A stretch of DNA of 43,021 bases from Anaerolineae bacterium (GTDB taxonomy: Bacteria; Chloroflexota; Anaerolineae; JACIWR01): positions 1-43,021 of the forward strand of contig JACIWR010000003.1 in the NCBI GenBank assembly GCA_014360845.1, in the 5' to 3' direction. The position numbers and the translations under genes are program-made. Below are positions 21,192 to 42,172 of the stretch, piece by piece. Within the stretch, counting starts at the first letter, position 1, and every line of letters begins with the position of its first letter. Below the pieces are notes generated by a model. It ran no database searches, was not told where the DNA came from, and worked only from the letters and a program-made list of their open reading frames with translations.

Positions 21192-21211
21192 GGAGCCGAA
21201 GGATCGAACAC

Positions 21212-22135: not shown

Positions 22136-22143
22136 CCGACTCC

Positions 22144-26405: not shown

Positions 26406-26740
26406 TAAAACAAACAAGACTAAGCGAGCAAGCTCACTGCCACATTGCGACAAACCATTCCGCCGATCAGCGAAATCTATTAGGTAAGACGATGAGCAGG
26501 TGGGCGTGTTTAAACGTCCTACATTTAGGAGACACTACAGCCTGATTTCCCCCACGACGAGTAGACACTCTTACGAGAAGAAACCAGATTCCCAGCAGTT
26601 CCCAATTTGCCGCGACGTTATAGCGGCAAAACAGATTCATCGAGAAAGATCCCAACAAGGAGGTGATTGTATGACCATTTGATCCATTTGAGCTAGGAAC
26701 AGACCCTCGAATCAGTTTGGTAAAGGGAAGGAGGAAACAG

Positions 26741-27289: not shown

Positions 27290-27311
27290 CGAGCGAGAGT
27301 TCGAAAGCCAA

Positions 27312-27347
27312 CCCCGGGAGGACAATCAACCCTCCTGGGGTTCTTTG
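27312..27347 (+). terminator. Rho-independent terminator between convergent genes.
   Basis: Stem ccccgggagg / cctcctgggg (one G-U pair), loop acaatcaac, followed by ttctttg. Confidence 0.7.
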
Positions 27348-27364
27348 TGCTTCCCTGAGAGCTA

Positions 27365-28201
27365 TTATTCCAACGACCGAGCCACTTTCAGCAATTCTTC
27401 CAGAGAGTAAGGGCCGGACAGGAAGAAAGTCACGCCATCCTCCTGCCATAGAAGATTGGTCAACACAAAATCCCCTTCACCCCACGGCCCTGGCCCGCTA
27501 TAACCCGACTCAGCCCACTCAGCCACCACTCCAGGTTTCAACTCCACAGTCCGCGTGTCCTGGGGTATAGATTCTCTTGGTGCTCCCCATACGCACCTGT
27601 AAGCATCCAAAAGGAAGAGAGGAGAAGAACCCGTCTCTGTCTCTAGCAGTTTCAGGTCTGAAGCCCCTGTAGCTTGCACGAGATAGCTGACGATCACGAG
27701 ATTCCGCCCATCTTCCGTTTGCACGACCTGGAAGACTTGCTGCACCGGCTGCTGTACGCCAGCAACATCCTTCCACTCCTCTATCCCTGGTGGCAGATAA
27801 GCAGGCACGCGAATTGGAAAACTCACTCTCGCTTGAGCTTGCTCCCTTGAGAGCAGAGGAGCCGGCATGGGCGCTTCCCCTTCGAAAACGACAACGGGAC
27901 GGGAGGTCAAGCCCGTTGCCCCAATGCGGGCCACTATCTCCCACAGCTCCCGGGCTGCTTGGACGCCTACCGTGCCAGCGAAGGTCAGGACGAATATCAT
28001 CAGCATGGTCGCTACAACCTGTATGGAGTAGTGCAAACTACCCCATCGAAAGGCGACCCTGCGTAATAGCGAAGTCTCCCACCGCTCTGCGGACATCTCC
28101 ATTCGTTCCAGTCGGGTCAGAAACGCACGAGATGGGTTGATACTCCTCCAATAACGAGGAATATCTCGCCGAAGTATTCCCTCGAAATCATCAGTCATCA
28201 T
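27365..28201 (-). CDS. Membrane-anchored anti-sigma factor candidate with a DUF4367-like C-terminus.
   Basis: It lies directly downstream of the ECF sigma gene. It has a single TM helix (VVATMLMIFVLTFAGTVGV). The C-terminus reads LLWQEDGVTFFLSGPYSLEELLKVARSLE. The ATG at 28201 is preceded by AAGGAGG. The listed start is 28255. Confidence 0.6.
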   Translation of the reverse strand: MMTDDFEGILRRDIPRYWRSINPSRAFLTRLERMEMSAERWETSLLRRVAFRWGSLHYSIQVVATMLMIFVLTFAGTVGVQAARELWEIVARIGATGLTSRPVVVFEGEAPMPAPLLSREQAQARVSFPIRVPAYLPPGIEEWKDVAGVQQPVQQVFQVVQTEDGRNLVIVSYLVQATGASDLKLLETETGSSPLFLLDAYRCVWGAPRESIPQDTRTVELKPGVVAEWAESGYSGPGPWGEGDFVLTNLLWQEDGVTFFLSGPYSLEELLKVARSLE

Positions 28202-28268
28202 CTCTCGTCCCTCCTTGCTTTCGCAATCGTGTATAGGTAGTACCACCTTCACCATTGCCCTTTTCCTG

Positions 28269-28799
28269 CTACTTTTCCTTCAGATACTCCCGTAACATCT
28301 GACGAGCCTCGCTCAACATACGCCGCACAGTCCCCGCTGGTCGGTCCAGGGAACGAGCAATTTCGCCAGTGTTATAACCTTCTCCATAGTAGAGTAAGAT
28401 CACCAGGCGGTACACACACGGCAAACTACCAATGGCTTCATACAGGTCAGAAAAACGCTCCCGCTCCGCGAGGGATTCCATATTCTCTGCCATCTGGCTC
28501 ACGAGCTCACGGTCACGCTTGCGTTTCCGAAGCAGATCACGAGCGCGGTTAACAACAATGCTATTCAACCAAAACTCAAAAGATGTCCTCTTTTTCAATC
28601 CGCGCAGGGAACGATAGGCAGCAATAAAAGCTTCCTGTACAACATCTTCTGCATCAGCGTGATTGCCTAATAGAGCGAACGCGATGCGGTACAGCCGCGT
28701 GCTGTGCTCACGCACGAGGGTAGCGAAGGCTATTCTGTCCCCATCTTGCGCCCGGGTAATGAGAACGATCTCCTCTGTTGCGGTCAACTCGTTATCCAC
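28269..28799 (-). CDS. ECF-type RNA polymerase sigma-70 family factor.
   Basis: Region 2 reads RLYRIAFALLGNHADAEDVVQEAFIAAYRSL. Region 4 helix-turn-helix reads YNTGEIARSLDRPAGTVRRMLSEARQML. Confidence 0.9.
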   Translation of the reverse strand: MDNELTATEEIVLITRAQDGDRIAFATLVREHSTRLYRIAFALLGNHADAEDVVQEAFIAAYRSLRGLKKRTSFEFWLNSIVVNRARDLLRKRKRDRELVSQMAENMESLAERERFSDLYEAIGSLPCVYRLVILLYYGEGYNTGEIARSLDRPAGTVRRMLSEARQMLREYLKEK

Positions 28800-28993
28800 C
28801 TGCTTGAATCACACGTGTTCAATGTAATCTATCGGACATCCGGTCTACTATAAAGACGAACGGCTAGGGCTTCTTGCTCACCCGCCCTATTCCAAATAGA
28901 TTGAGCCTTCGATGCCGTCTGTATAGTCTTCGGGATATTTTTCTTGCTTGGGCGACCCCGGTGCGTTAGGGAAATGTGGTCATTCTTCAGCTA

Positions 28994-30121
28994 TCAATCG
29001 AGCGGGGTAGCGTACAACCTGATCTCGTCACCCACCACCTGGCCGCACCATGTCCCGCCGGCCAGCGCTCCCACCGGCAGATGGAAAAAGTCCAGCGGGT
29101 AGCACAGCCCTTCGCCCAGGCGGAAGCCATTGTCTTTGCTGGTGATCAAGCGCTCATCGGGCACGCCGGGGAAGTCCGGTCCGGCTGCCTCGCCCTGCAC
29201 CCAGCCCACACCGGGTAGGTAGACCTCGACCCAGACGTGCATGCCCAGGTTCTGCCCAAACCAACTGGCCAGCGGCTCGAAGTGGGGCGGACGCGGCTCG
29301 CCGATGCGCGCCGGGCGCAATCCCGCTATCACCCGCGCTGGAATCCCCGCCGCCCGGCAGAGGGCGACGAAGACCTTGCTCTGACCGTTGCAGTCGCCCA
29401 ACCCCTCCTGAATGCAGCCTAGCGTGTCCGAGGGATAGGGGTCGCCCAGCCTGGGATAGATGATGTGCTCCTCCACCCACTGCTGGATGAGCAAGACTTT
29501 CCGCCACGGGTTGGTCTCATCCCCGACGATGGATTCGGCCAGAGCGCGTACCTCTTCGCGGTCCGAGGGGATGACCGCGTTGGGCGCGGTGTAGGTCTGG
29601 TACAACTCGCTCGTCTCGTCGTAGTCCCCTATCTGCTCCGCATCAATCGTGTACACCGCCGGGGCCACGCTGACCTCGAACTCCACGCCGAAGATGCAAT
29701 CGCCAGACTGGCAGAGGGCAGGCACTTCCGCCCAATGCACCACCTGATTGCCGGCCCGGTCCAAAAGCTCGTACCCGTCCGGGTAAGCGCGCAGGAACTC
29801 GACATCGAGGGTGCCCTGCCCATCCCAATCGCGGGGCACGGGCAGCCACAGGTGATCCACCATCCTATCCTTGCGGTAGACCGTTGGCCGCTCGATCTCG
29901 TAACGCATGCGGTAGCGGCGGGTGGGCACCGGCGTTGGGGTGGGCGTGCTGGTCGGTGTTGGGGTCGCCGTCGGGGTGGGTGTGGGGGTATAAGTCGCTG
30001 TCGCCGTGGGCGATGGGGTCGCCGATGGAGTAGGCGAAGGCGACGGTGTAGGCGTCGGGCTCGATAGTGCCGGCGCGCAGCCGCTGATCAAAAGCAACAG
30101 AATACACAACCACTTTCTCAT
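28994..30121 (-). CDS. Lipoprotein with a PT-rich linker and a transglutaminase-like cysteine protease core.
   Basis: Lipobox [10 protein letters not shown]. About 45 aa of PT repeats. Core motifs [23 protein letters not shown] and [14 protein letters not shown]. The ATG at 30121 is preceded by GGAAGAGGA. The listed start at 30139 is TTG. Confidence 0.75.
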
Positions 30122-30151
30122 GAGTTCCTCTTCCCTCAACCTCCCGCAGGT

Positions 30152-30997
30152 TCAGAACCCGCGGGAGGTTCGTTGCGCCAGCCAATCCCGCATGAAGGCC
30201 AGGACCTGGTCCTTTTCTGGCTCGTTAAAAATCTCGTGGTACAGGCCATCCCACAGTTTGAGCGTTTTGTCCTGGGACGAGATGGACTCGTACAGCTCGC
30301 GGCTGGCGGCGGGATCGGCCAGCTTATCCTCGGTGCCGTGCATGATGAGCACCGGACAGGTGATCGCGTGTGCGTCGCGCAGCACCTGGCGGGCGGTTCT
30401 GAGCATTTCCACGCAGACACAGGCGGGCACCTGTCCCCGGTAATTCAGCGGGTCGCTGTCGTAGCAGGCCACGACTTCGGGGTCACGGGAGATAGCTGTC
30501 GCTGCCAGGCGCGTCACTCCCATGCCGGGGAACAGGCGGGCAACAACCCCGCTCAGCGCCTGCAACAGCGGTGACACGCCCTCGCTGGGTCTAAACCAGG
30601 GACCGGATAACACCAGTCCATCCACCCGATCAGGATGCTGGATGGTGTAGGCCGTCGCTAACAGGCCTCCCATGCTGTGACCGACGAGAAAAAGAGGCCC
30701 CACTCCCCCGATGGCGCGAACCACGGTGACGAACTTGTCCAGGTCGTCCACCAGAAACTGGAAGCGCTCGAAGTACCCCCGCCGGCCCGCCGATTCGCCG
30801 TGGCCCCGATGATCGAGGGCGTACACGACGTAGCCCTGGCCGACGAAGTAGTCCGCCACGTGGGTGTAGCGACCGCTATGCTCGGCGTATCCGTGGGCCA
30901 CCACCAACACGGCACGGGGATCACCCTCCGGCTCCCATCCTCGATAGTAGATAATAGAATCGTTAAACCCTGTGAAAATACCTTCAATATCGCTCAT
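30152..30997 (-). CDS. Alpha/beta hydrolase, monoacylglycerol lipase/lysophospholipase-like.
   Basis: Motifs HGYAEHSGRY, the nucleophile elbow GHSMGG, and HGTEDKL..YHEIFNE. Confidence 0.8.
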   Translation of the reverse strand: MSDIEGIFTGFNDSIIYYRGWEPEGDPRAVLVVAHGYAEHSGRYTHVADYFVGQGYVVYALDHRGHGESAGRRGYFERFQFLVDDLDKFVTVVRAIGGVGPLFLVGHSMGGLLATAYTIQHPDRVDGLVLSGPWFRPSEGVSPLLQALSGVVARLFPGMGVTRLAATAISRDPEVVACYDSDPLNYRGQVPACVCVEMLRTARQVLRDAHAITCPVLIMHGTEDKLADPAASRELYESISSQDKTLKLWDGLYHEIFNEPEKDQVLAFMRDWLAQRTSRGF

Positions 30998-31053: not shown

Positions 31054-32229
31054 CTACTCCAGGGCATTCGCCACCAGGGTAATCAGGTCGCGCACTGGCA
31101 TTTCAATCTCCGCGCCCAACCTGGGATCGTCCATGGCGCACAAGAAATGAATCTGGCACTTGGCGCAGGCCGTGACCAGCATCTCGGCGCCGGTGGCCCG
31201 TGCCTCCCGCAGGCGTTCCACCTGGATAGCCTTGCTCGTCGCGCCGCAGTTCGTCCATCCGCTGGTGCCGCAACAAGTGGAGGTTTTGCCCGCGTGTGCC
31301 ATCTCCACTATCTCGATGCCCAGGGCCCGCAGAAGCTGGCGTGGGGCATCGTACACGTGCATGTAGCGTCCCAGCCGGCATGGGTCCTGGTAGGTGGCGG
31401 ATGGTGAATGGTGGGTGGCAGATGGCGGATGGCGGGTGGCAGATAGCAGATGGCGAATGGCGGATAGCAGGTCACTGGCGGACAGTAACTCGGCGATGTG
31501 CAGCACTTCCATGCCGGTATTGCCCACGAAGGCCGGGTAGTCCACTTTGAGGGTGTAGGCACATTCCGGACAGGAGGTGACGATGCGTCGGGCTCCGGTG
31601 CTCCGCAGCAGTTCCAGGTTCAGTTCGGCCAGGTGGCGGAAGGTGTTCACGTCGCCTTGCCACAGCAAGTCGTGACCGCAGCAGCGTTCGTCGGCCAGGA
31701 CGGCGGGTACGATGTCCAGCGCGTTGAGCACGCGCACCGCAGCGCGGGCGATGTCCACGCCCTGGAAGCCCTGTCGGCGGAAAAGCACGTCATAATACGG
31801 CAGACAACCCACCCAGTACACCGTATCCGAGGTAGGTGAGACCTGCAGGTCCCCCATCAACCAGTCCAGCCGGTTCTGCTTCAGCGCCGGATCGGCCATC
31901 ATGCGCATCCAGGTGTGGATGGTATCGCCGTGAGTGCACGCGCCCTGGTGGCCGATCTCGCGAGCCAGGATGCGCAGCTCGCGAGTGAACTCGGAGTAGT
32001 GCACATCCGAGGGGCAGATTTCGCTGCACCGTCGGCAGGTGAGGCAGGCCCAGGCCAAAGGGCTTTCCAGGACAGCATGAGCACGTCCGGCAACCACCTC
32101 TTCCACAATCCGGCGCGGCGAAAACCCGCTGTCCTGTCGCGCCACGGGACACGTCGCCGTGCATTTACCGCATTCCAGGCAATAGTAAGCCCGGTGGCGG
32201 GTGATTGTTTGTTTGATAGGGTCTGGCAA
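31054..32229 (-). CDS. HdrD-like Fe-S oxidoreductase: a fused HdrC-type 2x[4Fe-4S] domain plus two HdrB-type CCG domains.
   Basis: Motifs CLECGKCTATCPV, CLTCRRCSEICPS, CCGHDL, YQDPCRLGRY and CCGTSGW. I place the start at TTG 32229, which lies 8 nt after AGGAG and 11 nt after the mvhD stop. The listed ORF start at 32535 would overlap all of mvhD. Confidence 0.75.
   Translation of the reverse strand: MPDPIKQTITRHRAYYCLECGKCTATCPVARQDSGFSPRRIVEEVVAGRAHAVLESPLAWACLTCRRCSEICPSDVHYSEFTRELRILAREIGHQGACTHGDTIHTWMRMMADPALKQNRLDWLMGDLQVSPTSDTVYWVGCLPYYDVLFRRQGFQGVDIARAAVRVLNALDIVPAVLADERCCGHDLLWQGDVNTFRHLAELNLELLRSTGARRIVTSCPECAYTLKVDYPAFVGNTGMEVLHIAELLSASDLLSAIRHLLSATRHPPSATHHSPSATYQDPCRLGRYMHVYDAPRQLLRALGIEIVEMAHAGKTSTCCGTSGWTNCGATSKAIQVERLREARATGAEMLVTACAKCQIHFLCAMDDPRLGAEIEMPVRDLITLVANALE
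31389..31472. repeat. 12 tandem heptamers (consensus GGCRGAT on the plus strand) inside the hdrD-like coding sequence.
   Basis: Units read ggtaggt ggcggat ggtgaat ggtgggt ggcagat ggcggat ggcgggt ggcagat agcagat ggcgaat ggcggat agcaggt. That is 84 nt or 28 codons, and it encodes LLSAIRHLLSATRHPPSATHHSPSAT. Confidence 0.85.
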
Positions 32230-32240
32230 TGTGCGATCTC

Positions 32241-32657
32241 CTAATGGGATGGCGGAAGAGTGGAAGGTTGGAAGGAGCACAACTGCTCGATGAACGCTGT
32301 CACTTTCTCCACAAAGGCGTGCCCATCGCCGACATCCAGCCAATCCAGGCGCAATCGCTCCTCGGCGATACCCAGCAAATGCGCCAGCGCCCGTGCCTCG
32401 GCAAAGACTTCTTCCGCGTGGCGGTTTCCGAAGCCGTAGTGACATTCGCCCGGCGGGCAACCCAGCAGAAGCACGCTGTCGGCCCCCTGCTCGAATGCCT
32501 TGAGGATCAGCCCCGGATGCAGGCGGCCCAGACACATCACCTTGACCGCATACACGCCGGCCGGATAGCTCAAACCCTCGACGCCCGCCGCCTCCAAACT
32601 GCTATACGCATTCCAGTTACAGGTGAACACAATAACCCGTGTTTCCGTTTTTTCCAT
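32241..32657 (-). CDS. mvhD: MvhD-like protein (methyl-viologen-reducing hydrogenase delta-subunit family [2Fe-2S] protein).
   Basis: Reads VIVFTCNWNAYSSLEAAG..VKVMCLGRLHP..LLLGCPPGECHYGFGN. The ATG at 32657 is preceded by GGAAGGTG. The last ~8 codons lie in octamer repeats at 32252-32275. Confidence 0.8.
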   Translation of the reverse strand: MEKTETRVIVFTCNWNAYSSLEAAGVEGLSYPAGVYAVKVMCLGRLHPGLILKAFEQGADSVLLLGCPPGECHYGFGNRHAEEVFAEARALAHLLGIAEERLRLDWLDVGDGHAFVEKVTAFIEQLCSFQPSTLPPSH

Positions 32658-32712
32658 CACCTTCCGTCCTCGGGTCGCCCGCGCAGATGAAACCCAGCAA
32701 TCAGGCCTTATC

Positions 32713-33333
32713 TCAGTCGTCAAAGCAAGTCAGCATTACCACCGTATAGTCGTCGTTTACGCTGAACGCCAGCATAACGTTGGCACGTTCCTCTTCACGC
32801 ACAAAATCTAAAACAACGGCGGGGCCCCCGAACAAACCTGCCTCACTATACTGACGCTTATACAACTGCCAGCCCAGTACTGCCATTTGTTCCTGGTAAT
32901 AAGCCTCTACGTCTTCCACCATAGCCTCAACCGCATAAACATAGCTGAAGCCAGCAGGCCGCCCCTCGATAGCCCCCGGCATGACAGGCAATCCTTCCCA
33001 TGAGGGCACAGGCGTTCCCATGGTATCTGATTGACCGCTTACAGTAGACGTAGGCTCTGGCAGTGTGGCGGTCGGGGCTATTACCGATGGCGTCGGAGTG
33101 TCCACCGGCAATTGAGTCGCGGTGGGGAGTGGTGTCGCAGTAGGAAGGGGTGTCGTGGTGGGGAGTGGTGTCACGGTAGGAAGCGGTGTTTTAGTGGATT
33201 CTGGTGTTGCGGTAGGTGTTGATGTCTCAATTGCCGTCGTCGCGGTGGTGATAGACGATACCTGGAAAGATGAATCACAGGACGACAACACAATAACGCA
33301 AAAAATCATCACGGCAAACAAGCCTCGCTGCAT
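32713..33333 (-). CDS. Lipoprotein with a PT-rich linker and a small C-terminal domain of unknown function.
   Basis: Lipobox VIVLSSCDSS. The linker is TPTATPESTKTPLPTVTPLPTTTPLPTATPLPTAT. It is embedded between the hdrL-like gene and mvhD. Confidence 0.6.
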   Translation of the reverse strand: MQRGLFAVMIFCVIVLSSCDSSFQVSSITTATTAIETSTPTATPESTKTPLPTVTPLPTTTPLPTATPLPTATQLPVDTPTPSVIAPTATLPEPTSTVSGQSDTMGTPVPSWEGLPVMPGAIEGRPAGFSYVYAVEAMVEDVEAYYQEQMAVLGWQLYKRQYSEAGLFGGPAVVLDFVREEERANVMLAFSVNDDYTVVMLTCFDD

Positions 33334-33430
33334 TGGATGTCCTCCTTTAGCTAAGAGTCCCTCAATTACTCATCCAAATAAGCGGTCACACATCAAACGC
33401 CCCCAAAATGCTATTCGTCCTCCCCGCTCC

Positions 33431-33480
33431 ATCCGTTCAATCCGTTCCATCCGCTTAATCCGCTGACTAATCCGCTGACA
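33431..33480. repeat. Tandem nonamer-type repeat (ATCCGYTYA) spanning the hdrL-like stop codon.
   Basis: The atccg motif recurs at 33431, 33440, 33449, 33458 and 33470. The last unit supplies the final codons (..LSAD) and sits beside the TAG at 33467-33469. Confidence 0.7.
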
Positions 33481-36400
33481 ATACCGCCTTTAGCATAGCC
33501 TCGATTTGTGCATCCGTCGAGTAACCGGCCACGATAGCGCCCGACGGGCAATGCGCCGCGCAGGTCCCGCACCCGGTACAGGCCGCCGCATTGACCACGG
33601 CATGCCACCCTCCTGCCGCCGTCTGCCGCACGGCGATGGCTCCGAACTCGCACAGCGATTCACAAGTGCCGCACGCCCGGCAGCGCACCGCCTCCACCTG
33701 GGCCACGTTGCCGTCCGCCCCCCGCCGGCTGCGCCCCAGCAGGGCCATCACCTGGGCCGCAACCGCCGCGCCGGACTTCTCCGTTTCCTGCTCTGGAGAA
33801 CAGACGAAGAGGCCCGGTCGTCGGCCCGCCAGCCCCCCTAGATCAAAAACCCGTTCCCAGGGCGCGAAATCGGTAGCGCTGGCGGGAGCAAGCACTATCA
33901 CCGCGGCGGACACGGTACGCGACGCGTCATTGTATCCCAGGGTCACGGTGTAATCGCCCAGGGAACCCCGCGCCTCGACTGGTTGACTCGCCTCGCGTAT
34001 CACAGCCACGCCCTGGCGAGCGAGAAGTCCGGCGCAGGTCTCGGCGGCCTGGCCCCGCCCCCACACCAGCACCGGCCCCGTCACAGGCTCTACCACTCGA
34101 CGGCGCGCATCCGGTTCCCGCAGCCTGGCAACCGCCGCCGCTATCAAGCGCCGCGCCTTGGCCGTGGCTCGCGCCGCATCGTCGGCGTGCACCCAGGCGC
34201 ACTGTTCACGGATGTTCACCAGCTCTATGCGTGCCGGGATTTGCTGGCCGCCGTCCGCCAACACCCCCAAATGCGTCCGGCATCGCACCCGCTGTGACGT
34301 GCACCCGTAGCAGACCTGATCCAGCGTACAGCACGAGCAGGCGGCCAGGACCACGCCGTCCAACCCGTGGACTCTCACCGCAGCGGCTATCGTCTCCGCC
34401 CCTTCTGCCTGGCAGGCAAAATCCAGAGGGGCAGCGTAGACCACGCCTGGCCAGTGAGTCGCCTGGGCCACCACCGTGGAGACGTCCACCACGTCGGCGA
34501 TCTCGCTCCCGCATTTGCAGACGAAGACCCCGATGCGGATGGCGAAGGGCGGATGGCGGATAGCAAGTGGCAGACGGCGAGTGGCGGATGGGGTGGGGAG
34601 GACCTCTAGAGCAACGCCCAAATCGGCCATGACCCGCGCGGCCACCGCCGAAGCGCCCACCACATCGTCAGCCGCCACGTGATACACGCGATCATCGCCG
34701 CCGGTCACCTGCCCCTCACCCACGAGGACAACCGCTCCCACGTCCAGAGTGGCCGTCTCCTCGCGCATGGCGTGGTCAATCGCCCGCGGCTGGCAGACCT
34801 TCTCGCAGGCCAGGCACTCGGCGCAAGGACCGCAGCTCAGACAGCGACTGGCCTCGGCCAAGGCCGTCGCCTCGTCGAAACCCAGCTCCACCTCCGCGTA
34901 CCCGCCAGTCCGCTCCGCCGGGGAGATGGTCGGCATGGGCTGGCGCGGTTTGGGCCCTTTCTCCTCCGGCAGCAGTTCGCGGCGGGCCACCGGCATCGGG
35001 GGCGCTTCCACCGCCAACTCGTCCGGCAATCTGAGGCCGCGCAGGAAAGCGTCCATGGCTCGCGCGGCCCGCTTCCCCTTGCCGATGGCGTCAATCACCG
35101 ACCAGGGCTGGCCGATGGCGTCGCCCGCGGCGAACACGCCCGGCTTGCCGGTCATGTAAGTCACCGGGTCCACAAGCAGATTGCCCTGGCGGGTGACACC
35201 GCACTCACCCAGCGCCTCGCCCAGAAAATCCAGGTCGGGCTGCTGACCGATGGCCGGCACCACCAAATCCACCTCCACGATGAACTCCGAACCGGCGATG
35301 GGCACCGGGCGGCGGCGACCGCTCTCGTCAGGTTCGCCCAATTCCATGCGCACGCACTCCAGCCCCACCACCTGCTCGCTTTCACCTATCACGCGGATGG
35401 GCTGAGTGAGAAATTCGATGGGAATCCCCTCCCGCTCGGCGTCCTCCACCTCGTCGGGGATGGCCGGCATCTCGTCCCGCGAGCGACGATAGAGAACGCG
35501 CACATCGCGCACGCCCTGGCGCAGCAGACAGCGGGCCACATCTATGGCCGTGTTTCCCCCGCCGATAACCGCTGCCCGTCGCACGTGAGGGGGTAAGAGC
35601 TGCCGCAACCGCTCCGGCCACTCCGAATCCGGCAATTGCTGCGCCAGATTGATCGTCCGCAGCAACTCGATCCCCTGCACCACGCCCGGCAGCTCCTCAC
35701 CGGGGATGACCAGATTCCGCGGGCGGTGTGCACCGACGCCCAGGAACACCGCATCGTACTTATCCAGCAAATCATCCACGCTGAGGTCGCCGTCCGGCCC
35801 GATGCGCGTATTGCAGCGTATCTCCACGCCCATCTCCTGGAGGCGCGCCACCTCGCGGCGGATCACCTCTCGGGGCAGCCGATAGGCCGGAATGCCCACA
35901 GCCATCATCCCGCCAACCACCGGCAGCGCCTCGAAGACCGTCACCGCATGCCCGCGCCTGACCAGTTCGTAGGCCACGGTGAGGCCAGAGGGACCGGAGC
36001 CGACGATGGCGACGTGTTTTCCAGTGGAAGGGCGGAAGGGCGGAGGGTTGGAAGGGTGGAAGGGTGGAAGGGTGCAGTCGGCGACGAAGCGCTTCAGGTT
36101 GCGTATGCTCAGCGCCTGGTCCACCTCCGCGCGGCGGCAGTTGGTCTCGCAGGGATGGTGACACACACGGCCCAGGATGCCAGGGAAGGGCACCGCCTCG
36201 TAAATCAAATCCAGGGCCTCGCGATAGCGTCCAGCAGCGATGAGGGCCACGTAGCCCTGTACGTGGATGCCGCCCGGGCAGGCGTCGGTACAGGGGGCGC
36301 GGCCCTGCCTGTCAATCACATAGATATTGGGCACCGAGACACCGGGCAGCTTGTGGATGGCAGTATGTCCCTGGCCCGGCACCACCACCGGGCAGACTTC

Positions 36401-36757
36401 CTCACAATCGCCGCAGGCCGTGCAGCGCTGTGCGTCCACAAAGCGGGGCCAGGAGCGAACCTCAGCGCGCAGGTCGGCCCCCTCCCCCGCCAGGCGAGTG
36501 AGGGTGGTATTCGTCCACACGGTGATACGCGGATGCTTCACCGCCTCCAACCGTAGGCCGGGTTGGTAACTCGTCTTACGGTTCCCGCCGAGAAAAGGCG
36601 AAGGTTCAACTAAATGAACCTGCAACCCGGCGTCCGCCAAATCCAGAGCAGCGCGGAGCCCCGCCGCATCGCTGCCCAGGATCAACACCTCTCGCGCCAA
36701 CCCTCTCCTCCTATCCGCCACCCACCAACCGCCGCCCGTATTCGTACCCCAGCTCAA
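33467..36757 (-). CDS. HdrL-like giant flavo-Fe-S fusion. Order: truncated HdrA-type FAD domain, ferredoxin, GltD/NfnB-type NAD(P)H:FAD module, Fe-S domain, HdrA N-terminal-type domain, 2x[4Fe-4S] ferredoxin.
   Basis: Motifs in order: [21 protein letters not shown]; CTACGDCEEVCP; GILGRVCHHPCETNCRR; HVAIVGSGPSGLTVAYEL..GGMM.GIP.YRLP; AAVIGGGNTAIDVAR; VFAAGDA; CLSCGPCAECLACEKVC; IGVFVCKCGSEIADVVD..VNIREQCAWVH; CRACGTCESLCE..CTGCGTCAAHCP. An alternative start is TTG 36700, which is 6 nt after AGGAGG and 10 nt after the korG stop. Confidence 0.8.
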   Translation of the reverse strand: MSWGTNTGGGWWVADRRRGLAREVLILGSDAAGLRAALDLADAGLQVHLVEPSPFLGGNRKTSYQPGLRLEAVKHPRITVWTNTTLTRLAGEGADLRAEVRSWPRFVDAQRCTACGDCEEVCPVVVPGQGHTAIHKLPGVSVPNIYVIDRQGRAPCTDACPGGIHVQGYVALIAAGRYREALDLIYEAVPFPGILGRVCHHPCETNCRRAEVDQALSIRNLKRFVADCTLPPFHPSNPPPFRPSTGKHVAIVGSGPSGLTVAYELVRRGHAVTVFEALPVVGGMMAVGIPAYRLPREVIRREVARLQEMGVEIRCNTRIGPDGDLSVDDLLDKYDAVFLGVGAHRPRNLVIPGEELPGVVQGIELLRTINLAQQLPDSEWPERLRQLLPPHVRRAAVIGGGNTAIDVARCLLRQGVRDVRVLYRRSRDEMPAIPDEVEDAEREGIPIEFLTQPIRVIGESEQVVGLECVRMELGEPDESGRRRPVPIAGSEFIVEVDLVVPAIGQQPDLDFLGEALGECGVTRQGNLLVDPVTYMTGKPGVFAAGDAIGQPWSVIDAIGKGKRAARAMDAFLRGLRLPDELAVEAPPMPVARRELLPEEKGPKPRQPMPTISPAERTGGYAEVELGFDEATALAEASRCLSCGPCAECLACEKVCQPRAIDHAMREETATLDVGAVVLVGEGQVTGGDDRVYHVAADDVVGASAVAARVMADLGVALEVLPTPSATRRLPLAIRHPPFAIRIGVFVCKCGSEIADVVDVSTVVAQATHWPGVVYAAPLDFACQAEGAETIAAAVRVHGLDGVVLAACSCCTLDQVCYGCTSQRVRCRTHLGVLADGGQQIPARIELVNIREQCAWVHADDAARATAKARRLIAAAVARLREPDARRRVVEPVTGPVLVWGRGQAAETCAGLLARQGVAVIREASQPVEARGSLGDYTVTLGYNDASRTVSAAVIVLAPASATDFAPWERVFDLGGLAGRRPGLFVCSPEQETEKSGAAVAAQVMALLGRSRRGADGNVAQVEAVRCRACGTCESLCEFGAIAVRQTAAGGWHAVVNAAACTGCGTCAAHCPSGAIVAGYSTDAQIEAMLKAVLSAD
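34534..34596. repeat. 9 tandem heptamers of the GGCGGAT family in frame inside the hdrL-like gene.
   Basis: Units read tgcggat ggcgaag ggcggat ggcggat agcaagt ggcagac ggcgagt ggcggat ggggtgg. That is 63 nt or 21 codons. It encodes PTPSATRRLPLAIRHPPFAIR immediately before IGVFVCKCG. Confidence 0.8.
36024..36071. repeat. 6 tandem octamers (GYGGAAGG) in frame inside the hdrL-like gene.
   Basis: Units read gtggaagg gcggaagg gcggaggg ttggaagg gtggaagg gtggaagg. That is 48 nt or 16 codons. It encodes TLPPFHPSNPPPFRPS just before the Rossmann motif GKHVAIVGSGPSG. Confidence 0.85.
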
Positions 36758-37265
36758 AAGCGCGACTGTTGAGCTCCTCCGTGCCCTTAGGCACCGACTC
36801 CAGCACGGCCCGGCGCAAGGCCTCCACCGAGACCACGTCGGTCACGGCGGCGAAGAAACCCAGCATCACCACGTTGGCCACAATCCTGCGCCCCAGCTCC
36901 TCCTCGGCCAGACGAGTGGCAGGAATGGAGAGAACACGCAGACCCGCCGCTTCCTCCCCCAGCTCAACCAGGTCCTCATCTACGAGCAGAACCCCCTCGC
37001 GGTTGAAATCGGGCACGTACTTGCTGTAAGCCCCCTGGGACATCACCACCAGAATGCGCGGGTCCAGAAGATGGGGGTAGTGGATGGGTTCATCGGAGAT
37101 GATAACCTGCGCCGCACAGGCTCCGCCTCGCGATTCCGGCCCGTAGCTCTGGGTGAAAGTGGCGTACTTGCCATCGTGAATGGCCGCCGCCATGCCAACT
37201 ATCTCCCCGCTACGTATGATTCCCTGCCCACCGAAGCCGGCTATACGCACCTCGATTCTGCTCAT
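36711..37265 (-). CDS. korC: 2-oxoacid:ferredoxin oxidoreductase gamma subunit.
   Basis: Starts MSRIEVRIAGFGGQGIIRSGEI, followed by SYGPESRGG. 184 aa. GGAG lies 7 nt upstream of the ATG. The last codons and the stop lie in three heptamer units at 36713-36733. Confidence 0.85.
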   Translation of the reverse strand: MSRIEVRIAGFGGQGIIRSGEIVGMAAAIHDGKYATFTQSYGPESRGGACAAQVIISDEPIHYPHLLDPRILVVMSQGAYSKYVPDFNREGVLLVDEDLVELGEEAAGLRVLSIPATRLAEEELGRRIVANVVMLGFFAAVTDVVSVEALRRAVLESVPKGTEELNSRAFELGYEYGRRLVGGG

Positions 37266-37283
37266 TTCTATGCTCCACTCATC

Positions 37284-37340
37284 AGGTGACAGTCACTTCC
37301 AAAGTGACTGTCACCTGGCTGTCACCTGGCTGTCACCTGG
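37284..37340. repeat. 14-bp perfect hairpin whose right arm is the first of three perfect 11-nt tandem repeats (CTGTCACCTGG).
   Basis: The hairpin is aggtgacagtcact-tccaa-agtgactgtcacct (37284-37316). The ctgtcacctgg copies lie at 37308, 37319 and 37330. The korB stop (37322-37324) is inside copy 2. Confidence 0.85.
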
Positions 37341-38182
37341 CAATCCAGGAACGTCGGCTTCTCGATGTCTATGAACTTGCCCTCGACAATCTCTCCGCCC
37401 AGTTCTATATCCACGCTCTTTGGATCCGCACCATGGCGGATGACACCTTTTTCGTGATAGTACTTCAACGTATCAAGCCCCGTGCGCTGCTTATGTCGCC
37501 GCCCGAAGTTAGTGGGACAAGGGGAGATCACCTCCACAAAGCTGAATCCGCGCTTGGCCAACGCCTCGCCTATGGCTCGCTCCAGGCGGCGCACGTGAAG
37601 CACCGTCCACCGCGCCACGTATACCGCCCCGCTGGCCACCGCCAGATACGGCAGGTTGAAGGGGTGCTCGTAGTTGCCGTAAGGGGTAGTGGTGGTAATG
37701 CTCCCCACCGGCGTCGTGGCCCCGTGTTGACCGCCGGTCATCCCGTAATTGAAATTATTGACGCAGATGACCGTCATGTCTATGTTGCGCCGCGCGGCAT
37801 GGATGAAGTGATTGCCGCCGATAGTCACCAGATCACCATCACCGGAGAAGACCACCACCTTCAGCTCCGGATTGGCCAGCTTGAGCCCCGTGGCGAAGGG
37901 TATCGCCCGCCCGTGCGTGGTGTGGAATGAATCCAGTTGCACGTAGCCCGCCACCCGCCCCGTGCAACCGATGCCGCTGACCACGACCACCTTGTCCAGG
38001 TCCAAACCCGATTTCAGCAGAGCACTGATGAAACAGGTCAGCGCCGTGCCAATCCCGCAGCCCGAACACCAGATGTGCGGCAGCCGCTCCTCACGCAGCA
38101 GAGCATCCATCGGGTGGCGTTCCGGCGAGACGGCCCCCGGTTCCACCGAATTCACCTCCATGTGACCCGTCAGCTCGCTCAT
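37322..38182 (-). CDS. korB: 2-oxoacid:ferredoxin oxidoreductase beta subunit (TPP-binding).
   Basis: Motifs WCSGCGIG, SGIGC and GDGD.. IGGNHFIHAARRNIDMTVICVNN. The internal ATG at 38182 overlaps the korA stop (ATGA). The listed N-terminal extension is G/A/R-rich and lies inside korA. Confidence 0.85.
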   Translation of the reverse strand: MSELTGHMEVNSVEPGAVSPERHPMDALLREERLPHIWCSGCGIGTALTCFISALLKSGLDLDKVVVVSGIGCTGRVAGYVQLDSFHTTHGRAIPFATGLKLANPELKVVVFSGDGDLVTIGGNHFIHAARRNIDMTVICVNNFNYGMTGGQHGATTPVGSITTTTPYGNYEHPFNLPYLAVASGAVYVARWTVLHVRRLERAIGEALAKRGFSFVEVISPCPTNFGRRHKQRTGLDTLKYYHEKGVIRHGADPKSVDIELGGEIVEGKFIDIEKPTFLDCQVTAR

Positions 38183-39336
38183 GTCACTGCCCTCCTGATC
38201 GCCGCCAGCACCTGTTCCGGCTTGTGGATGTCCCCGCCAGGATGGGGCACCAGGTAAACGGGCGCCCGCCCCGCCGCGCAACGCTCCACTTCCAGCGCGA
38301 TCTGCCCCCAGTTTATCTCCGGCACCACGAAGGCCTGCACCCGCTGCGCCAGCTCCCGAATCCTCTCCTCGGCGAAAGGCCACACCGTGATCAAGCGCAG
38401 CATACCCACCCTGATGCCCTCCCGGCGGGCCAATTCCAGGGGCCACATGGCCGCGCGGGCGGCGATGCCATAGGAAACGACCACCACTTCAGCGTCCTCC
38501 AGATACAGTTCCTCCACCTCGATAATCTCGTCTTTGTACAACCGTATCTTGTTCACCAGACGCTGAATCAACGGCCACTGGGCGGAATCATCGTTGGTGG
38601 ATGGATAACCCCGCTCGTCGTGGGTCAGCCCCGTAATGTGGATGCGATAGCCTTCGCCGGCGACGGCCATGGGCGGCACCAGGTCCTCATCGGGCAGATA
38701 AGGCTGATAACCGTCGCCGGGCGGGACCCGGGGCCGACGGCGGGGAACGATTTCCACTTCCTCCAGCGGCGGGATGACCACCTTCTCGGTCATGTGCCCC
38801 ACCTCGGCATCGGTCATAACCAGCACCGGGGTACGGAATCGTTCCGAGAGGTTGAAGGCGCGGATGGTGAGATCGAACAGCTCCTGGGGAGAGCTAGGCG
38901 ATAAAGCGATGATCTCGTAAGGACCGTGCGATCCCCAGCGGGCCTGCATCATGTCCCCCTGCCCCACCAGGGTCGGCAACCCGGTGGAAGGCCCGCCCCG
39001 CTGTACGTTCACCAGCACGCATGGCGTCTCGGTCATAATCCCCAGCCCCAGGTTTTCCATCATCAGGGAAAAGCCCGGCCCCGAGGTGGCGGTCATGGCC
39101 TTGACCCCGGCCCAGGAAGCTCCCAGGACGGCGTTCATGGAGGCCAATTCGTCTTCCATCTGAATGTAAGTACCGCCCACCTGAGGCATACGTTCGGCCA
39201 TGCGCTGGGCGATCTCGGTGGCCGGGGTGATGGGGTAACCGGCGAAGAAGCGGCAACCGGCCACAATGGCCCCTTCCGCACAGGCGATGTCCCCCTGCAT
39301 GAAGAAACTTCCGGTCAGAAGACCCTTCTCGCTCAT
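38179..39336 (-). CDS. korA: 2-oxoacid:ferredoxin oxidoreductase alpha subunit.
   Basis: 385 aa. Reads GDIACAEGAIVAGCRFFAGYPITPATEI..MEDELASMNAVLGASWAG.KAMTATSGPGFSLM. The ATG overlaps the korD stop. Confidence 0.85.
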   Translation of the reverse strand: MSEKGLLTGSFFMQGDIACAEGAIVAGCRFFAGYPITPATEIAQRMAERMPQVGGTYIQMEDELASMNAVLGASWAGVKAMTATSGPGFSLMMENLGLGIMTETPCVLVNVQRGGPSTGLPTLVGQGDMMQARWGSHGPYEIIALSPSSPQELFDLTIRAFNLSERFRTPVLVMTDAEVGHMTEKVVIPPLEEVEIVPRRRPRVPPGDGYQPYLPDEDLVPPMAVAGEGYRIHITGLTHDERGYPSTNDDSAQWPLIQRLVNKIRLYKDEIIEVEELYLEDAEVVVVSYGIAARAAMWPLELARREGIRVGMLRLITVWPFAEERIRELAQRVQAFVVPEINWGQIALEVERCAAGRAPVYLVPHPGGDIHKPEQVLAAIRRAVT

Positions 39337-39608
39337 AAAGCCCCCACCTCCCGCTCTTCCTCCACCCGGTAGATGGCGAACTCAGGACAGAGCATCTCAC
39401 AAAGCCCGCAACTCACACATGCCGTTTCATTCACAACACGAGGTGGATGGTACCCCTTGGAGTTGAACTCGTCCGACACTTCCAGCACCTGACGGGGGCA
39501 GAAAGCTACACACCACCCGCAACCTTTACAGCGCTCACGGATGATGTAAATCCGTCCATGGGGTACGCGGATGGACGCCAAATCTAGCGGTTTTCTCCAG
39601 TACTTCAC
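39333..39608 (-). CDS. korD: 2-oxoacid:ferredoxin oxidoreductase delta subunit (2x[4Fe-4S] ferredoxin).
   Basis: Motifs CKGCGWCVAFCP and CVSCGLCEMLCP. GTG at 39608 lies 6 nt after GGGAGAG. The listed GTG at 39656 sits inside the heptamer repeat. Confidence 0.75.
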   Translation of the reverse strand: MKYWRKPLDLASIRVPHGRIYIIRERCKGCGWCVAFCPRQVLEVSDEFNSKGYHPPRVVNETACVSCGLCEMLCPEFAIYRVEEEREVGAL

Positions 39609-39646
39609 TGTACTCTCCCGTTGCGCGAAGCGTGACCCAGTCACCC

Positions 39647-39702
39647 CACGCTTCACGCTTCACGTTTCCCGTTTCACGCCTTACGTTTTACGCCTCACGC
39701 CC
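39647..39702. repeat. 8 tandem heptamers (CACGCTT family) filling the sucD-korD spacer.
   Basis: Units read cacgctt cacgctt cacgttt cccgttt cacgcct tacgttt tacgcct cacgccc. The repeat ends 2 nt from the sucD stop. Confidence 0.85.
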
Positions 39703-39704
39703 CA

Positions 39705-40571
39705 TCAACCAAGCTCCCGAATCAACTCCGGTATCTCGTCGGGCCGGCTGGCGACGCGCACTCCCACTTTCTCAAAAGCAGCGATCTTCTCCGCGGCAGT
39801 ACCGGTGCCTCCCTCGATAATCGCTCCCGCGTGTCCCATGCGCTTGCCCGGCGGTGCGGTCCGTCCGGCGATGAAGGCCACCACTGGCTTGCTCATCTCC
39901 GCGGCGATGAACTCCGCCGCCCGCTCCTCGTCCGTGCCCCCTATTTCGCCGATGAGCACCACGTAATCGGTCAGCGGGTCATCCTCAAAGAGAGCCAGGA
40001 TGTCCACGAAAGTGCTGCCGATAACGGGATCGCCGCCAATGCCCACCGCCGTGGATTGGCCCAGCCCGGCCATGGTCAGAGCGTGCACCACCTCGTAGGT
40101 CAACGTGCCACTGCGCGAGACTACACCCACCGGCCCCGGGATATGGATGTGTCCGGGCATAATGCCTACCTTGGCCTCTCCGGGCGTAATCACCCCCGGA
40201 CAGTTGGGCCCGATGAGCCGCGTGCCCTTGGCCTGCAAATACGCCTTGACGCGCACCATGTCCAGCACGGGAATGCCCTCGGTGATGCACACCACCAACT
40301 CAATGCCCGCATCCGCGGCCTCATACATGGCATCTGGGGCGAAACGGGCCGGCACGTAAATGATGGCCGTGTTGGGACCGGTGGCAGCTACGGCCTCCCG
40401 CACAGTGTCGAACACGGGCACGCCAGCCACCCACTCCCCGCCTTTACCCGGGGTGACTCCGGCCACCACCTGCGTGCCATACTCCAACATCTGGCGGGTG
40501 TGAAACTGGCCTTCACGGCCTGTGATACCTTGCACCAAAAGACGTGTATCCTTATCAACCAGAATGCTCAT
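39705..40571 (-). CDS. sucD: Succinyl-CoA synthetase alpha subunit.
   Basis: Reads [24 protein letters not shown], followed by [15 protein letters not shown] and MGHAGAII. Confidence 0.95.
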
Positions 40572-40618
40572 TGGCTCTCTCCTGTGATGTGGTGTAGGAC
40601 AACTCTTGAGGAGTTGTC

Positions 40619-41026
40619 TTACAGACGCTCTCGGATTCGCGCCGCGATCTCCTGCAGGACCGAGAAGTCCGTCCGCTGCACCTGGGGCGGCAGTCGCAGC
40701 TCGTCGCCGAACCAGCGGGGAATGATATGCACATGAAAGTGAAACACGCTCTGGAAAGCGGCTCTTTCACTGGATTGGAACAGATTCATCCCGTCGGGGC
40801 GCAAAGCCTCGCGCACGGCACGAGCCACGCGCACCGTGGTGCGCATCACCGCCGCCGCCGATTCGGGATCAATGTCGTACAGATTGCGATAGTGTTCTTT
40901 GGGCACCACCAGGACATGCCCCTGGCTCACCGGGTTAATGTCCATGAAAGCCAGGGTCTCCTCGTCCTCCCAAACCACAGCCGCCGGCGCTTTCCCGGCC
41001 ACAATGGCGCAGAAAATGCAGCTCAT
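40619..41026 (-). CDS. HIT-family (histidine triad) nucleotide hydrolase/transferase.
   Basis: Reads [13 protein letters not shown], followed by [10 protein letters not shown] and HFHVHIIPR. Confidence 0.9.
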
Positions 41027-41029
41027 CGC

Positions 41030-42172
41030 TTACGCCATCCTCCCCTGAGCCAGGGCCACCGCCTTCTGCGCGGCCTCGGCCAAAGTCTCCGCCGTGACCA
41101 TATCCGCTCCGGCCAGAAGGGCCCGCCCCTCTTCCTCGTTAGTGCCCACCAGACGGGCCACCATAGGCACCTGCGGCTTGACCTCCTCCAGAGCTGCCAG
41201 GATGCCTCTGGCCACCTCATCACAGCGGGTAATCCCGCCAAAGATGTTGAACAGCACTGCTTTGACATTCTCATCGGAAAGAATGATGCGCAAGGCCGCG
41301 GCTACTTTCTCGGCCTTGGCCCCGCCGCCGATGTCCAGGAAATTGGCCGGCGCGCCGCCGTACAACTTGGTGAGGTCCATCGTGGCCATGGCCAGCCCCG
41401 CCCCGTTGACCATACACCCAATCTCCCCATCCAGCCGCACGTAACTCAGGCCAAAGAGACGCGCCTCCTGCTCGTAGGGGTCCTCCTCGGCCAAATCGCG
41501 CAACTCGGCCAAGTCGGGATGGCGGAAAAGGGCATTGTCGTCAATGATCATCTTGCCATCCAGGGCCAATAACTCCCCCGCGGCGGTGATGACCAGCGGA
41601 TTGATCTCCGCCAGGGTAGCATCAGAGCCGAGGAAAGCAGCGTACAGGCCCCGGGCAATGCGGACGAAATCGCGTAGATAGGCGCGGCTCAATCCGATAC
41701 CGAAGGCCAGCTCGCGGGCCTGATATTCCCGCAGGCCGAGGAAGGGGTCCACCGTTACCTTCACAATGCGCTCCGGTGTGAGACGAGCCACCTCTTCGAT
41801 GTCCACACCGCCCTCACTGGAGGCCATCATCACCGGGCGACCAGCGGCGCGGTCAATGACCACGCCCAGATAAATCTCCTGGACGATGTCCGCCGCCTCG
41901 TCCACCAGGACCTTGCCCACCGTCAGGCCCTTGATCTCCATGCCCAAAATGCGCTCGGCCATGACCTCGGCCTCGGCGGGGTCGCGGGCCAAAAGAATAC
42001 CACCAGCCTTACCCCGCCCTCCGACCAGCACCTGGGCTTTGATCACCACCGGCTTGCCCAGACGGTCGGCGATCTGGCGCGCTTCCTCGGCGGAACGGGC
42101 CACGTCGCCCTGGGGGATAGGGACGCCATACTCGGCAAAGATTCGTTTAGATTGGTATTCGTGTAACCTCAT
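41030..42172 (-). CDS. sucC: Succinyl-CoA synthetase beta subunit (ADP-forming).
   Basis: Reads [18 protein letters not shown], followed by [31 protein letters not shown] and [13 protein letters not shown]. The ATG at 42172 is preceded by GAAGGAG. Confidence 0.95.

Follow-up and report, generated by a model that had tools for sequence, protein, structure and literature searches.

A 2-oxoacid:ferredoxin oxidoreductase in a conserved gene module with HdrL-like, MvhD, HdrD-like and selenocysteine HdrA2 proteins: a candidate electron-bifurcating system of Chloroflexota and Desulfobacterales

Why do the genes of a 2-oxoacid:ferredoxin oxidoreductase (OFOR; KorDABG, or Kor) stand next to genes for HdrL-like, MvhD and HdrD-like electron-transfer proteins in a bacterium? 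The question is raised by contig JACIWR010000003.1 of an Anaerolineae bacterium (Chloroflexota; assembly GCA_014360845.1), of which positions 1 to 43,021 were analysed. This whole stretch of 43,021 nucleotides is referred to as the window. An earlier note on this DNA had described a block of eleven genes, running from sucC to an hdrD-like gene. It proposed that the products couple the ferredoxin pool of a tricarboxylic acid (TCA) cycle step to NAD(P)H and a disulfide-type acceptor, through flavin-based electron bifurcation or confurcation. That interpretation is partly supported. The conserved operon-like unit is korD-korA-korB-korG-hdrL-mvhD-hdrD-hdrA2(Sec), where Sec stands for selenocysteine, and sucCD and a HIT-family gene are accessory to it rather than part of the core. 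As the kor-hdrL-mvhD-hdrD set is found with its gene order kept in about 75 species from two phyla, its products probably work as one redox machine.

Homologues of HdrL are numerous (7750 at E < 1e-20), and more than 100 of them, labelled Anaerolineae or Chloroflexota, are about 50% identical over their full length. The neighbourhoods of five homologues all read sucCD-korD-korA-korB(G)-hdrL-mvhD-hdrD, with a split HdrA-MvhD gene close by. For a wider sample, one genome per GTDB species was scanned with an HdrL alignment, which yielded 78 loci in the Chloroflexota and the Desulfobacterales. The gene content of these loci, numbered here with the prefix L, was mapped by tblastn with the window proteins. 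Sixteen loci are from Desulfobacterales or ‘Deltaproteobacteria’ metagenome-assembled genomes; the remainder are from Anaerolineae, Caldilineae, Ardenticatenia and other Chloroflexota.

The order of the genes is nearly invariant across this sample. Directly upstream of hdrL lies korG, as the last gene of korDABG, in 62 of the 64 loci whose flanks are long enough. Downstream, mvhD follows hdrL in every locus (66/66) and an hdrD-like gene is present in 64 of 66. An HdrA2-type gene is found further downstream in 46 of 49 loci, often just 15-60 nt past hdrD. Of 66 species, 17 have an estimated overlap of korG with hdrL, 20 others a gap of 0-30 nt and 9 a gap of more than 100 nt; mvhD and hdrD overlap by estimate in 34 of 64 species. 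In the compact relative L005 all the genes abut. The only loci without kor are L062 and L065, both of which show a shortened HdrL match. The HdrL of L062 is a divergent, shorter HdrL-MvhD fusion and was not counted as a counter-example.

The association also appears when the search is started from the other side. Among KorA homologues picked regardless of Hdr genes, L087 has the same cluster. A further locus, L088, carries a variant in which kor is followed by three HdrA-like genes, mvhD, hdrD, hdrC and hdrB, with no HdrL. Since L088 keeps Kor with Hdr proteins in this way, the link between them does not depend on HdrL by itself. When KorA, HdrA2 and HdrD were placed in neighbour-joining trees, the Desulfobacterales came out contiguous in leaf order and flanked by Chloroflexota groups, a pattern consistent with a module transferred and inherited as one piece. 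Recurrence in about 75 species places the arrangement far beyond chance, and the synteny counts reject chance adjacency. The outcome that the earlier note had named as its own refutation, synteny confined to the source genome, is thus clearly contradicted, and the conservation strongly backs a functional link between Kor and the Hdr proteins.

Several loci depart from the common layout by addition. Two hdrL copies in tandem, with identities of roughly 40% and 46% to the window HdrL, follow korG in L019, L021, L028, L054, L055, L057, L059, L072 and L082. Two or three HdrA-like/QmoAB-like genes followed by mvhD, hdrD, hdrC and hdrB come after kor in L002, L003, L013, L058 and L088; this block stands alongside HdrL in most of its loci and replaces it in L088. 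Several Desulfobacterales and Chloroflexota loci (L023, L025, L028, L031, L042 and L050) have another OFOR set 10 kb or less from the module; it is more distantly related (korDABG or korABG; KorA about 48-55% identical to that of the window).

In the window the genes of the unit are placed as follows:

39333-39608, minus strand: korD, delta subunit with two CX2CX2CX3CP motifs (2x[4Fe-4S]); Fer4 domains
38179-39336, minus strand: korA, 2-oxoacid:ferredoxin oxidoreductase alpha subunit; POR_N and PFOR_II domains, NF006412 570.8 bits (cut-off 411)
37322-38182, minus strand: korB, beta subunit that binds thiamine pyrophosphate (TPP); PF02775 118 bits
36711-37265, minus strand: korG, gamma subunit; PF01558 119.8 bits
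33467-36700, minus strand: hdrL-like gene, TTG start, 1077 aa; NfnB/GltD-like, HdrA-type and ferredoxin domains
32241-32657, minus strand: mvhD, [2Fe-2S] electron connector; PF02662 131 bits
31054-32229, minus strand: hdrD-like gene, HdrC+HdrB fusion; PF02754 96.2 bits over two stretches
23736-26309, minus strand: hdrA2(Sec), HdrA2-type protein with ferredoxin domains and a fused MvhD domain; NF040770

Together with four further genes listed below, the first seven of these make up the eleven minus-strand genes of the earlier note. They all run in the same direction and fill 31054-42172, as judged by translation of the open reading frames (ORFs) and inspection of start codons and upstream purine-rich sequence. 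Pfam and NCBIfam uphold each domain assignment, so the identities given in that note stand, as do the junctions that it quoted. Read from the window sequence, these are ATGA overlaps at korD/korA and korA/korB and gaps of 10 nt at korG-hdrL and 11 nt at mvhD-hdrD. The gap at sucC-HIT is 3 nt, and wider gaps occur at HIT-sucD (47 nt), korB-korG (56 nt) and sucD-korD (96 nt). No promoter-like or terminator-like site was seen in the minus-strand spacers with an E. coli-type consensus, which is a weak guide for Chloroflexota.

The HdrL-like protein is where NAD(P)H would enter. Residues 5-132 are the Rossmann start of HdrA and the first half of its inserted ferredoxin domain (aligned with HdrA2 150-295). 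The Cys/Sec loop of HdrA is deleted here in the alignment to the window HdrA2. Residues 133-655 are an NfnB/GltD-like NADPH-FAD module with two N-terminal Fe-S clusters, which passes NF009410 at 519.7 bits (cut-off 516). With the corresponding NADPH/FAD subunits or domains in the solved NfnABC, StnABC and NfnI it shares 35-43% identity. The second half of the inserted ferredoxin domain follows at 614-660 (HdrA2 291-336). After it come the N-terminal Cys-rich domain of HdrA with a degenerate Rossmann fold at 721-907 (HdrA2 8-180) and a C-terminal 2x[4Fe-4S] domain at 975-1076. Among PDB structures, residues 5-130 of the HdrA 5odc_A are matched at E = 1e-39.

An AlphaFold2 (AF2) model of HdrL has a mean predicted local distance difference test (pLDDT) score of 77, and its top Foldseek matches are NfnABC, StnABC and NfnI-L. 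Against 5jca_L the TM-score is 0.79 (target-normalised) with a root-mean-square deviation of 2.7. This whole-protein search is dominated by the NfnB module and bears on that module rather than independently on the HdrA-like parts. The module carries the motifs GSGPSG, GGGNTA and YRR. The last of these, after the second Rossmann fold, is invariant in the family and by analogy with NfnB and GltD suggests NADPH as the nucleotide. The earlier description of HdrL, a GltD/NfnB-type NAD(P)H-FAD module joined to HdrA-type and ferredoxin domains, is thus correct by profile matches, HdrA2 alignment and AF2/Foldseek.

HdrA2 is a full HdrA with the canonical GGGVAG FAD motif and a Sec site. Against NF040770 its N-terminal piece scores 308 bits and its C-terminal piece 839 bits, with full-length coverage. 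The gene is split by an in-frame TGA at 25707-25709 (minus strand) in the motif DCSI-U-ILGPKMM. The TGA is kept in 58 related loci and is replaced by TGC (Cys) at the same position in four paralogues; it is therefore a genuine selenocysteine codon. It lies at the site that is occupied by selenocysteine in some methanogen HdrA proteins. A hairpin resembling a selenocysteine insertion sequence (SECIS) begins 21 nt past the TGA, at 25669-25686 (minus strand; GGAUGCC-GGUC-GGCAUCC). It has a perfect 7-bp stem, and the z-score of the 68-nt stretch is just -1.5. In the window 4.7 kb of inserted unrelated genes separate hdrD from hdrA2, and many relatives have the two adjacent. The earlier note had listed a second, Sec-containing HdrA-MvhD ‘5 kb away’; the protein is there, with its conserved TGA, and it belongs to the module instead of standing apart.

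Between these flavoproteins and a final acceptor stand MvhD and HdrD. The cysteines of MvhD are present in the window protein. The HdrD-like protein has two CX2CX2CX3C motifs, and its HdrC-type PDB matches reach E = 1e-12. Both of its CCG motifs are complete (C142, CC183/184, C220xxC223 and C284, CC319/320, C355xxC358). Two CCG motifs are the ligand set of the HdrB active site. Fusions among the Hdr parts occur as HdrL-MvhD (P0098 and others), HdrA-MvhD-HdrL and HdrA-MvhD-NfnB, and lend Rosetta-stone support to contact among these parts. A hydrogenase domain was found in none of the window ORFs scanned, as the earlier note had remarked; MvhD without hydrogenase is nonetheless ordinary in bacteria (PMC2702500). 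As a separate observation, the window HdrD has a repetitive His/Ser/Pro/Ala/Thr-rich insert (SATRHPPSATHHSPSAT) between its CCG domains, at residues ~262-285 (window ~31375-31446, minus strand). Because of the insert, the protein exceeds its counterpart in the close relative L001 by ~14 aa.

All four OFOR subunits are present with their TPP and Fe-S motifs. KorA scores 239.9 bits with PF01855 and 66.9 bits with PF17147, and passes the generic 2-oxoacid:acceptor oxidoreductase model NF006412. Among PDB entries it matches best with 1yd7, with 8ys5 (2-oxoglutarate synthase alpha) and with 6n2n, the 2-oxoglutarate:ferredoxin oxidoreductase (OGOR) of Magnetococcus. KorB shows FSGDGD...VNNFNYG, of the GDG...NN type, and four cluster cysteines in CSGC, GIGC and SPCP. 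The cluster motifs of KorD are CKGCGWCVAFCP and CVSCGLCEMLCP. In most relatives korG is fused to korB, and the KorBG fusions of L002-L008 are 517-541 aa long. The OGOR-specific NCBIfam models are the best specific matches of Kor, with Por- and Vor-type models much lower.

The genes around kor bear on its substrate as well. In several Anaerolineae relatives the 5-oxoprolinase genes pxpABC (LamB_YcsF, CT_C_D and CT_A_B) lie between sucC/HIT and sucD, for example at L014:1731-5973 and L087:4726-7688. The block of L014 also holds creatininase-family and DHDPS-family genes. The product of 5-oxoprolinase is glutamate. Adjacency to sucCD and the presence of pxpABC favour 2-oxoglutarate, without proving it, as the most likely substrate of Kor. 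The same context hints that in some Chloroflexota the module may serve glutamate catabolism, which is the oxidative direction.

How these parts could work together is best considered as three levels of potential. On balance, we incline to the view that the module is a reversible flavin-based bifurcating or confurcating system linking Kor and ferredoxin, NADP(H) and an acceptor at the CCG site. What the sequences show is gene content, domains, cofactor motifs and a very strong co-inheritance; complex formation, bifurcation, electron paths, direction and the CCG-site substrate are inferences that go beyond this. At the low level, KorDABG would interconvert a 2-oxoacid (most likely 2-oxoglutarate) with acyl-CoA and CO2. 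Its partner in electron exchange would be ferredoxin or, without such a carrier, a ferredoxin domain of HdrA2 or HdrL. At the middle level, NADP(H) would be bound by the NfnB-like FAD module of HdrL. At the high level, the two CCG domains of HdrD would reduce or oxidise a disulfide/dithiol or another acceptor.

Electrons would pass from HdrL through Fe-S clusters to MvhD and on to the HdrA2 flavin, as they pass from hydrogenase through MvhD to HdrA in methanogens. As most of the HdrA flavin domain is missing from HdrL, the bifurcating HdrA-type flavin is more likely to be that of HdrA2, unless the NfnB-like FAD itself bifurcates. In the bifurcating direction the electrons of NADPH would be split. 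The downhill electron would reach the CCG site by way of the HdrC-like clusters in HdrD, and the uphill electron would go to ferredoxin or to KorD/KorB, driving succinyl-CoA + CO2 to 2-oxoglutarate. In the confurcating direction, 2-oxoglutarate oxidation and thiol oxidation together would yield NADPH. In the lineage of the window, SucCD would supply or consume the succinyl-CoA. By textbook values, the 2-oxoglutarate couple lies at about -500 mV, a dithiol at about -150 mV and NADP+ at about -320 mV. Since the first two average near the third, confurcation is equally allowed thermodynamically.

A bolder proposal is that Kor, HdrL, MvhD, HdrD and HdrA2 form a hard-wired supercomplex, in which NADPH bifurcation feeds 2-oxoglutarate synthase without free ferredoxin. 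The downhill electron might then end on menaquinone, a protein disulfide or some other acceptor that is not classical for a CCG site. Such an assembly would be a bacterial, C-C-bond-forming counterpart of the methanogen Hdr-Fwd super-assembly. We put this forward tentatively and regard it as unlikely.

A number of observations weigh against the favoured bifurcating scheme. The first concern HdrL, which has no counterpart of HdrA2 residues 336-562 and so no complete thioredoxin-reductase-like FAD domain, and whose first dinucleotide motif is G-S-D-A-A-G instead of GxGxxG. For these reasons HdrL resembles an NADPH-FAD entry module on an Fe-S scaffold rather than another complete HdrA, and the part of it that is HdrA-like may serve purely as that scaffold. 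No Kor-Hdr fusion was found among 120 close HdrL homologues or among 150 representatives of a set of 1.84 billion proteins; four hits of unusual length were scanned with Pfam as well, and the only fusions seen joined Hdr parts to one another. Physical contact between Kor and Hdr proteins is therefore unsupported. No conserved extra partner, such as a thiol carrier or a ferredoxin, emerged from all-against-all clustering of the ORFs of the 78 loci. The 4.7-kb hdrD-hdrA2 gap and the lipoprotein gene between hdrL and mvhD make co-transcription less certain in the source genome than in its relatives.

Others concern the substrate and expression. All four OGOR-specific models stay below their cut-offs (alpha 377 against 579, beta 251 against 364, gamma 104 against 216 and delta, OGOR_delta, 68.7 against 125). 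Upstream of kor, sucD is present in only 19 of 49 loci, all Chloroflexota, and the Desulfobacterales have no sucCD linkage. The tie to the TCA cycle or its reductive form through succinyl-CoA synthetase, as drawn in the earlier note, consequently holds for those 19 species and for none of the Desulfobacterales. A presumed equivalent of the module in Syntrophobacter fumaroxidans, termed ‘HdrAL/POR’, was undetected in the proteome under any tested growth condition (PMC5947623).

Of the explanations that do without bifurcation through a joint system, the one that survives best is that of two independent enzymes sharing a ferredoxin pool and a regulon, with no physical complex. Kor would be a free-standing OFOR, and HdrL-MvhD-HdrD-HdrA2 a stand-alone NADPH:ferredoxin:disulfide oxidoreductase. 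The lack of Kor-Hdr fusion proteins would fit, as would the role of KorD, which already serves as the usual ferredoxin-docking subunit, and the korG-hdrL spacers above 100 nt in nine species. Such loose partners are nevertheless hard to reconcile with a near-invariant gene order in two phyla, frequent stop/start overlaps and genes that appear co-inherited as a unit. Because the same three redox pools would be coupled, only the wiring differs from the scheme favoured here. We hold this explanation to be unlikely.

The position of HdrL straight after korG, at 10 nt in the window and overlapping in 17 species, suggests a simpler role, namely that of a built-in ferredoxin:NADP+ reductase of Kor. 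The result would be a non-bifurcating NADP+-linked 2-oxoacid dehydrogenase, with HdrD and HdrA2 acting separately. Phenylglyoxylate:NAD+ oxidoreductase, PadEFGHI, has an extra flavoprotein subunit in a similar set-up. HdrL would suit this role, with a complete NADPH-FAD module and several Fe-S clusters and without most of the HdrA flavin domain. On the other hand, kor is no less tightly conserved with mvhD, hdrD and hdrA2 than with hdrL, and L088 keeps the Kor-Hdr linkage with no HdrL at all. The module is also not Pad-type, because the Pad NCBIfam models score far under their cut-offs (alpha 66.5 against 700, beta 55.8 against 700 and gamma 61.6 against 300). Taken together, a built-in reductase is quite doubtful as the whole function of HdrL.

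That Kor acts on another 2-oxoacid (pyruvate, branched-chain or aromatic), placing the module in amino-acid or pyruvate catabolism instead of a TCA step, is improbable: the ‘POR’ of the S. fumaroxidans name (PMC5947623), the OGOR scores under cut-off and the Desulfobacterales loci without sucCD speak for it, but the best-scoring specific models and the relatives of solved structure belong to 2-oxoglutarate enzymes, Por-/Vor-type models score much lower, sucCD is adjacent in 19 species, and genes leading from 5-oxoproline to glutamate lie inside the sucC-sucD block of relatives.

The module is thus delimited as korDABG-hdrL-mvhD-hdrD-hdrA2(Sec) and not as the eleven-gene unit of the earlier note, of which sucCD and HIT are accessory and the lipoprotein gene an insertion. 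These genes and those inserted before hdrA2 are placed as follows:

41030-42172, minus strand: sucC, ADP-forming succinate-CoA ligase beta subunit; NF001913 529 bits (cut-off 370); accessory
40619-41026, minus strand: HIT-family hydrolase between sucC and sucD; PF01230 96.5 bits; accessory
39705-40571, minus strand: sucD, succinate-CoA ligase alpha subunit; NF004230 459 bits (cut-off 336); accessory
32713-33333, minus strand: Thr/Pro-rich lipoprotein gene, outside the module; lineage-specific insertion
26467-30997, minus strand (genes within): alpha/beta hydrolase, transglutaminase-like protein, extracytoplasmic function (ECF) sigma factor (28269-28799) and two ORFs without family matches

The HIT gene is confined to the nearer Anaerolineae relatives. 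The lipoprotein gene is separated by 133 nt from hdrL and by 55 nt from mvhD. The stretch 32659-33438 stands where the close relative L010 has a spacer of about 80 nt, with flanks at 94% nucleotide identity to L010, and no homologue of the lipoprotein was found in 86 related loci. The lipoprotein was rejected as a component of the module, being an insertion absent from all relatives.

The interval between hdrD and hdrA2 varies in the relatives. L001, whose HdrL is 84% identical, has only the hydrolase and the transglutaminase-like gene there. A UDP-glucose 6-dehydrogenase gene recurs at this place in L002, L003, L008, L053 and L087, and a GAF histidine kinase with a response regulator in about 17-21 loci. 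Between korBG and hdrL, a C_GCAxxG_C_C ‘putative redox-active’ protein is encoded in two species only (L008:4661-5107 and L016:9559-9984). As it is not conserved, it is unlikely to be a general substrate of the CCG site.

Two further regions of the window were noted in passing. At 5730-12188 (minus strand) lies the gene of a hybrid sensor kinase of 2152 aa, composed of about five PAS and five GAF domains, HisKA/HATPase, two receivers and Hpt, after which comes a CheC/CheX-like gene. Next to hdrA2, an ABC transporter of the nickel/oligopeptide type, made up of a substrate-binding protein and two permeases, is encoded at 19386-23037 (plus strand); L001 shares this neighbour.

Bacteria have many HdrA and HdrL paralogues, and for hardly any of them is a partner or a substrate known. 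The module assigns a defined partner, an OFOR, to one orthologous group of HdrL in about 75 species. If the bifurcating scheme is true, anaerobes without a strong reductant could drive the carboxylation of succinyl-CoA to 2-oxoglutarate with NADPH. Alternatively, the energy of 2-oxoglutarate oxidation would be recovered as NADPH and not lost. In either case OFOR would join the enzymes served by flavin-based electron bifurcation. The module is also a concrete seven-to-eight-gene target for heterologous expression.

In the comparison with known systems, no characterised match for the module was found: the literature searched yielded no Kor-Hdr system with this gene set, in agreement with the earlier note. 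The nearest mention is the ‘HdrAL/POR’ of S. fumaroxidans (Sfum_0012-0018), which receives one sentence and no assigned function (PMC5947623). It is described as an Hdr-like set with a 2-oxoacid (pyruvate):ferredoxin oxidoreductase, and it has as many locus tags, seven, as there are genes in the korDABG-hdrL-mvhD-hdrD core. S. fumaroxidans is a deltaproteobacterium, and Desulfobacterales loci carry the module here. On description and gene count, the basis of this comparison, the two appear to be equivalent.

HdrL itself was defined in Desulfobacterium autotrophicum (PMC2702500). In ANME-1, the HdrA-NfnB fusions HdrA9-11 have been proposed to use NADPH, NfnB carrying the bifurcating FAD (PMC9012536). 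As in the window, a large HdrA-related protein with a GltD/NfnB-like NAD(P)H-FAD module is followed by mvhD in both organisms. In HdrA9-11 this module is placed within the inserted ferredoxin domain of HdrA, the same as in the window HdrL. The D. autotrophicum and ANME-1 proteins adjoin dsrABC, fdh or hdrBC, whereas the window HdrL adjoins an OFOR. Unlike them, it is without most of the thioredoxin-reductase-like domain of HdrA and has the HdrA N-terminal domain after the NfnB module.

The NADPH/FAD part of NfnAB, NfnABC and StnABC (PDB 4ylf, 5jca, 9bov, 9n5u and 8oh5) is 35-43% identical to HdrL 133-655 and superposes on it. Three carriers are coupled in these enzymes, namely ferredoxin, NADPH and one other, and the third branch here is Hdr-type. 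No NfnA partner (PyrK-like, [2Fe-2S]/FAD) occurs in any scanned cluster or window ORF, for which reason the module is not Nfn, and domain scans of the window ORFs gave no NuoEF-like BfuBC partner. The Desulfovibrio FlxABCD-HdrABC is an NAD(P)H-linked Hdr system with an MvhD-like connector, for which bifurcation to ferredoxin and a disulfide (DsrC) has been proposed. FlxA, FlxB and FlxC match no window ORF, and MvhD (FlxD-like) alone is present. In the absence of FlxABC the module is not Flx-Hdr; its NADPH entry is NfnB-like and it is tied to an OFOR.

The HdrA2B2C2 of Methanosarcina acetivorans uses F420H2 and CoM-S-S-CoB (Yan et al. 2017, as cited in PMC12142623). It shares with the module an HdrA of the HdrA2 type to which ferredoxin domains have been added and MvhD is fused, and differs in that the window HdrA2 contains selenocysteine and has an HdrD-type fusion as its partner.

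In concept, the methanogen Hdr-Fwd super-assembly is the characterised system that comes nearest. The account of it describes an Hdr hard-wired to a CO2-reducing enzyme, with the bifurcated low-potential electrons delivered directly (PMC13518236). Shared with it are an HdrA flavin with a Cys/Sec site, the MvhD connector and the HdrC-type and HdrB-type CCG clusters. The donor here is instead an NADPH module and not a hydrogenase, HdrB and HdrC are fused as HdrD, and CoM-S-S-CoB is an impossible acceptor in these bacteria. The candidate low-potential partner is an OFOR where the methanogens have formylmethanofuran dehydrogenase. What is new is a widespread and uncharacterised Hdr-type system, hypothetically bifurcating, that brings together an OFOR partner and an NfnB-type NADPH entry.

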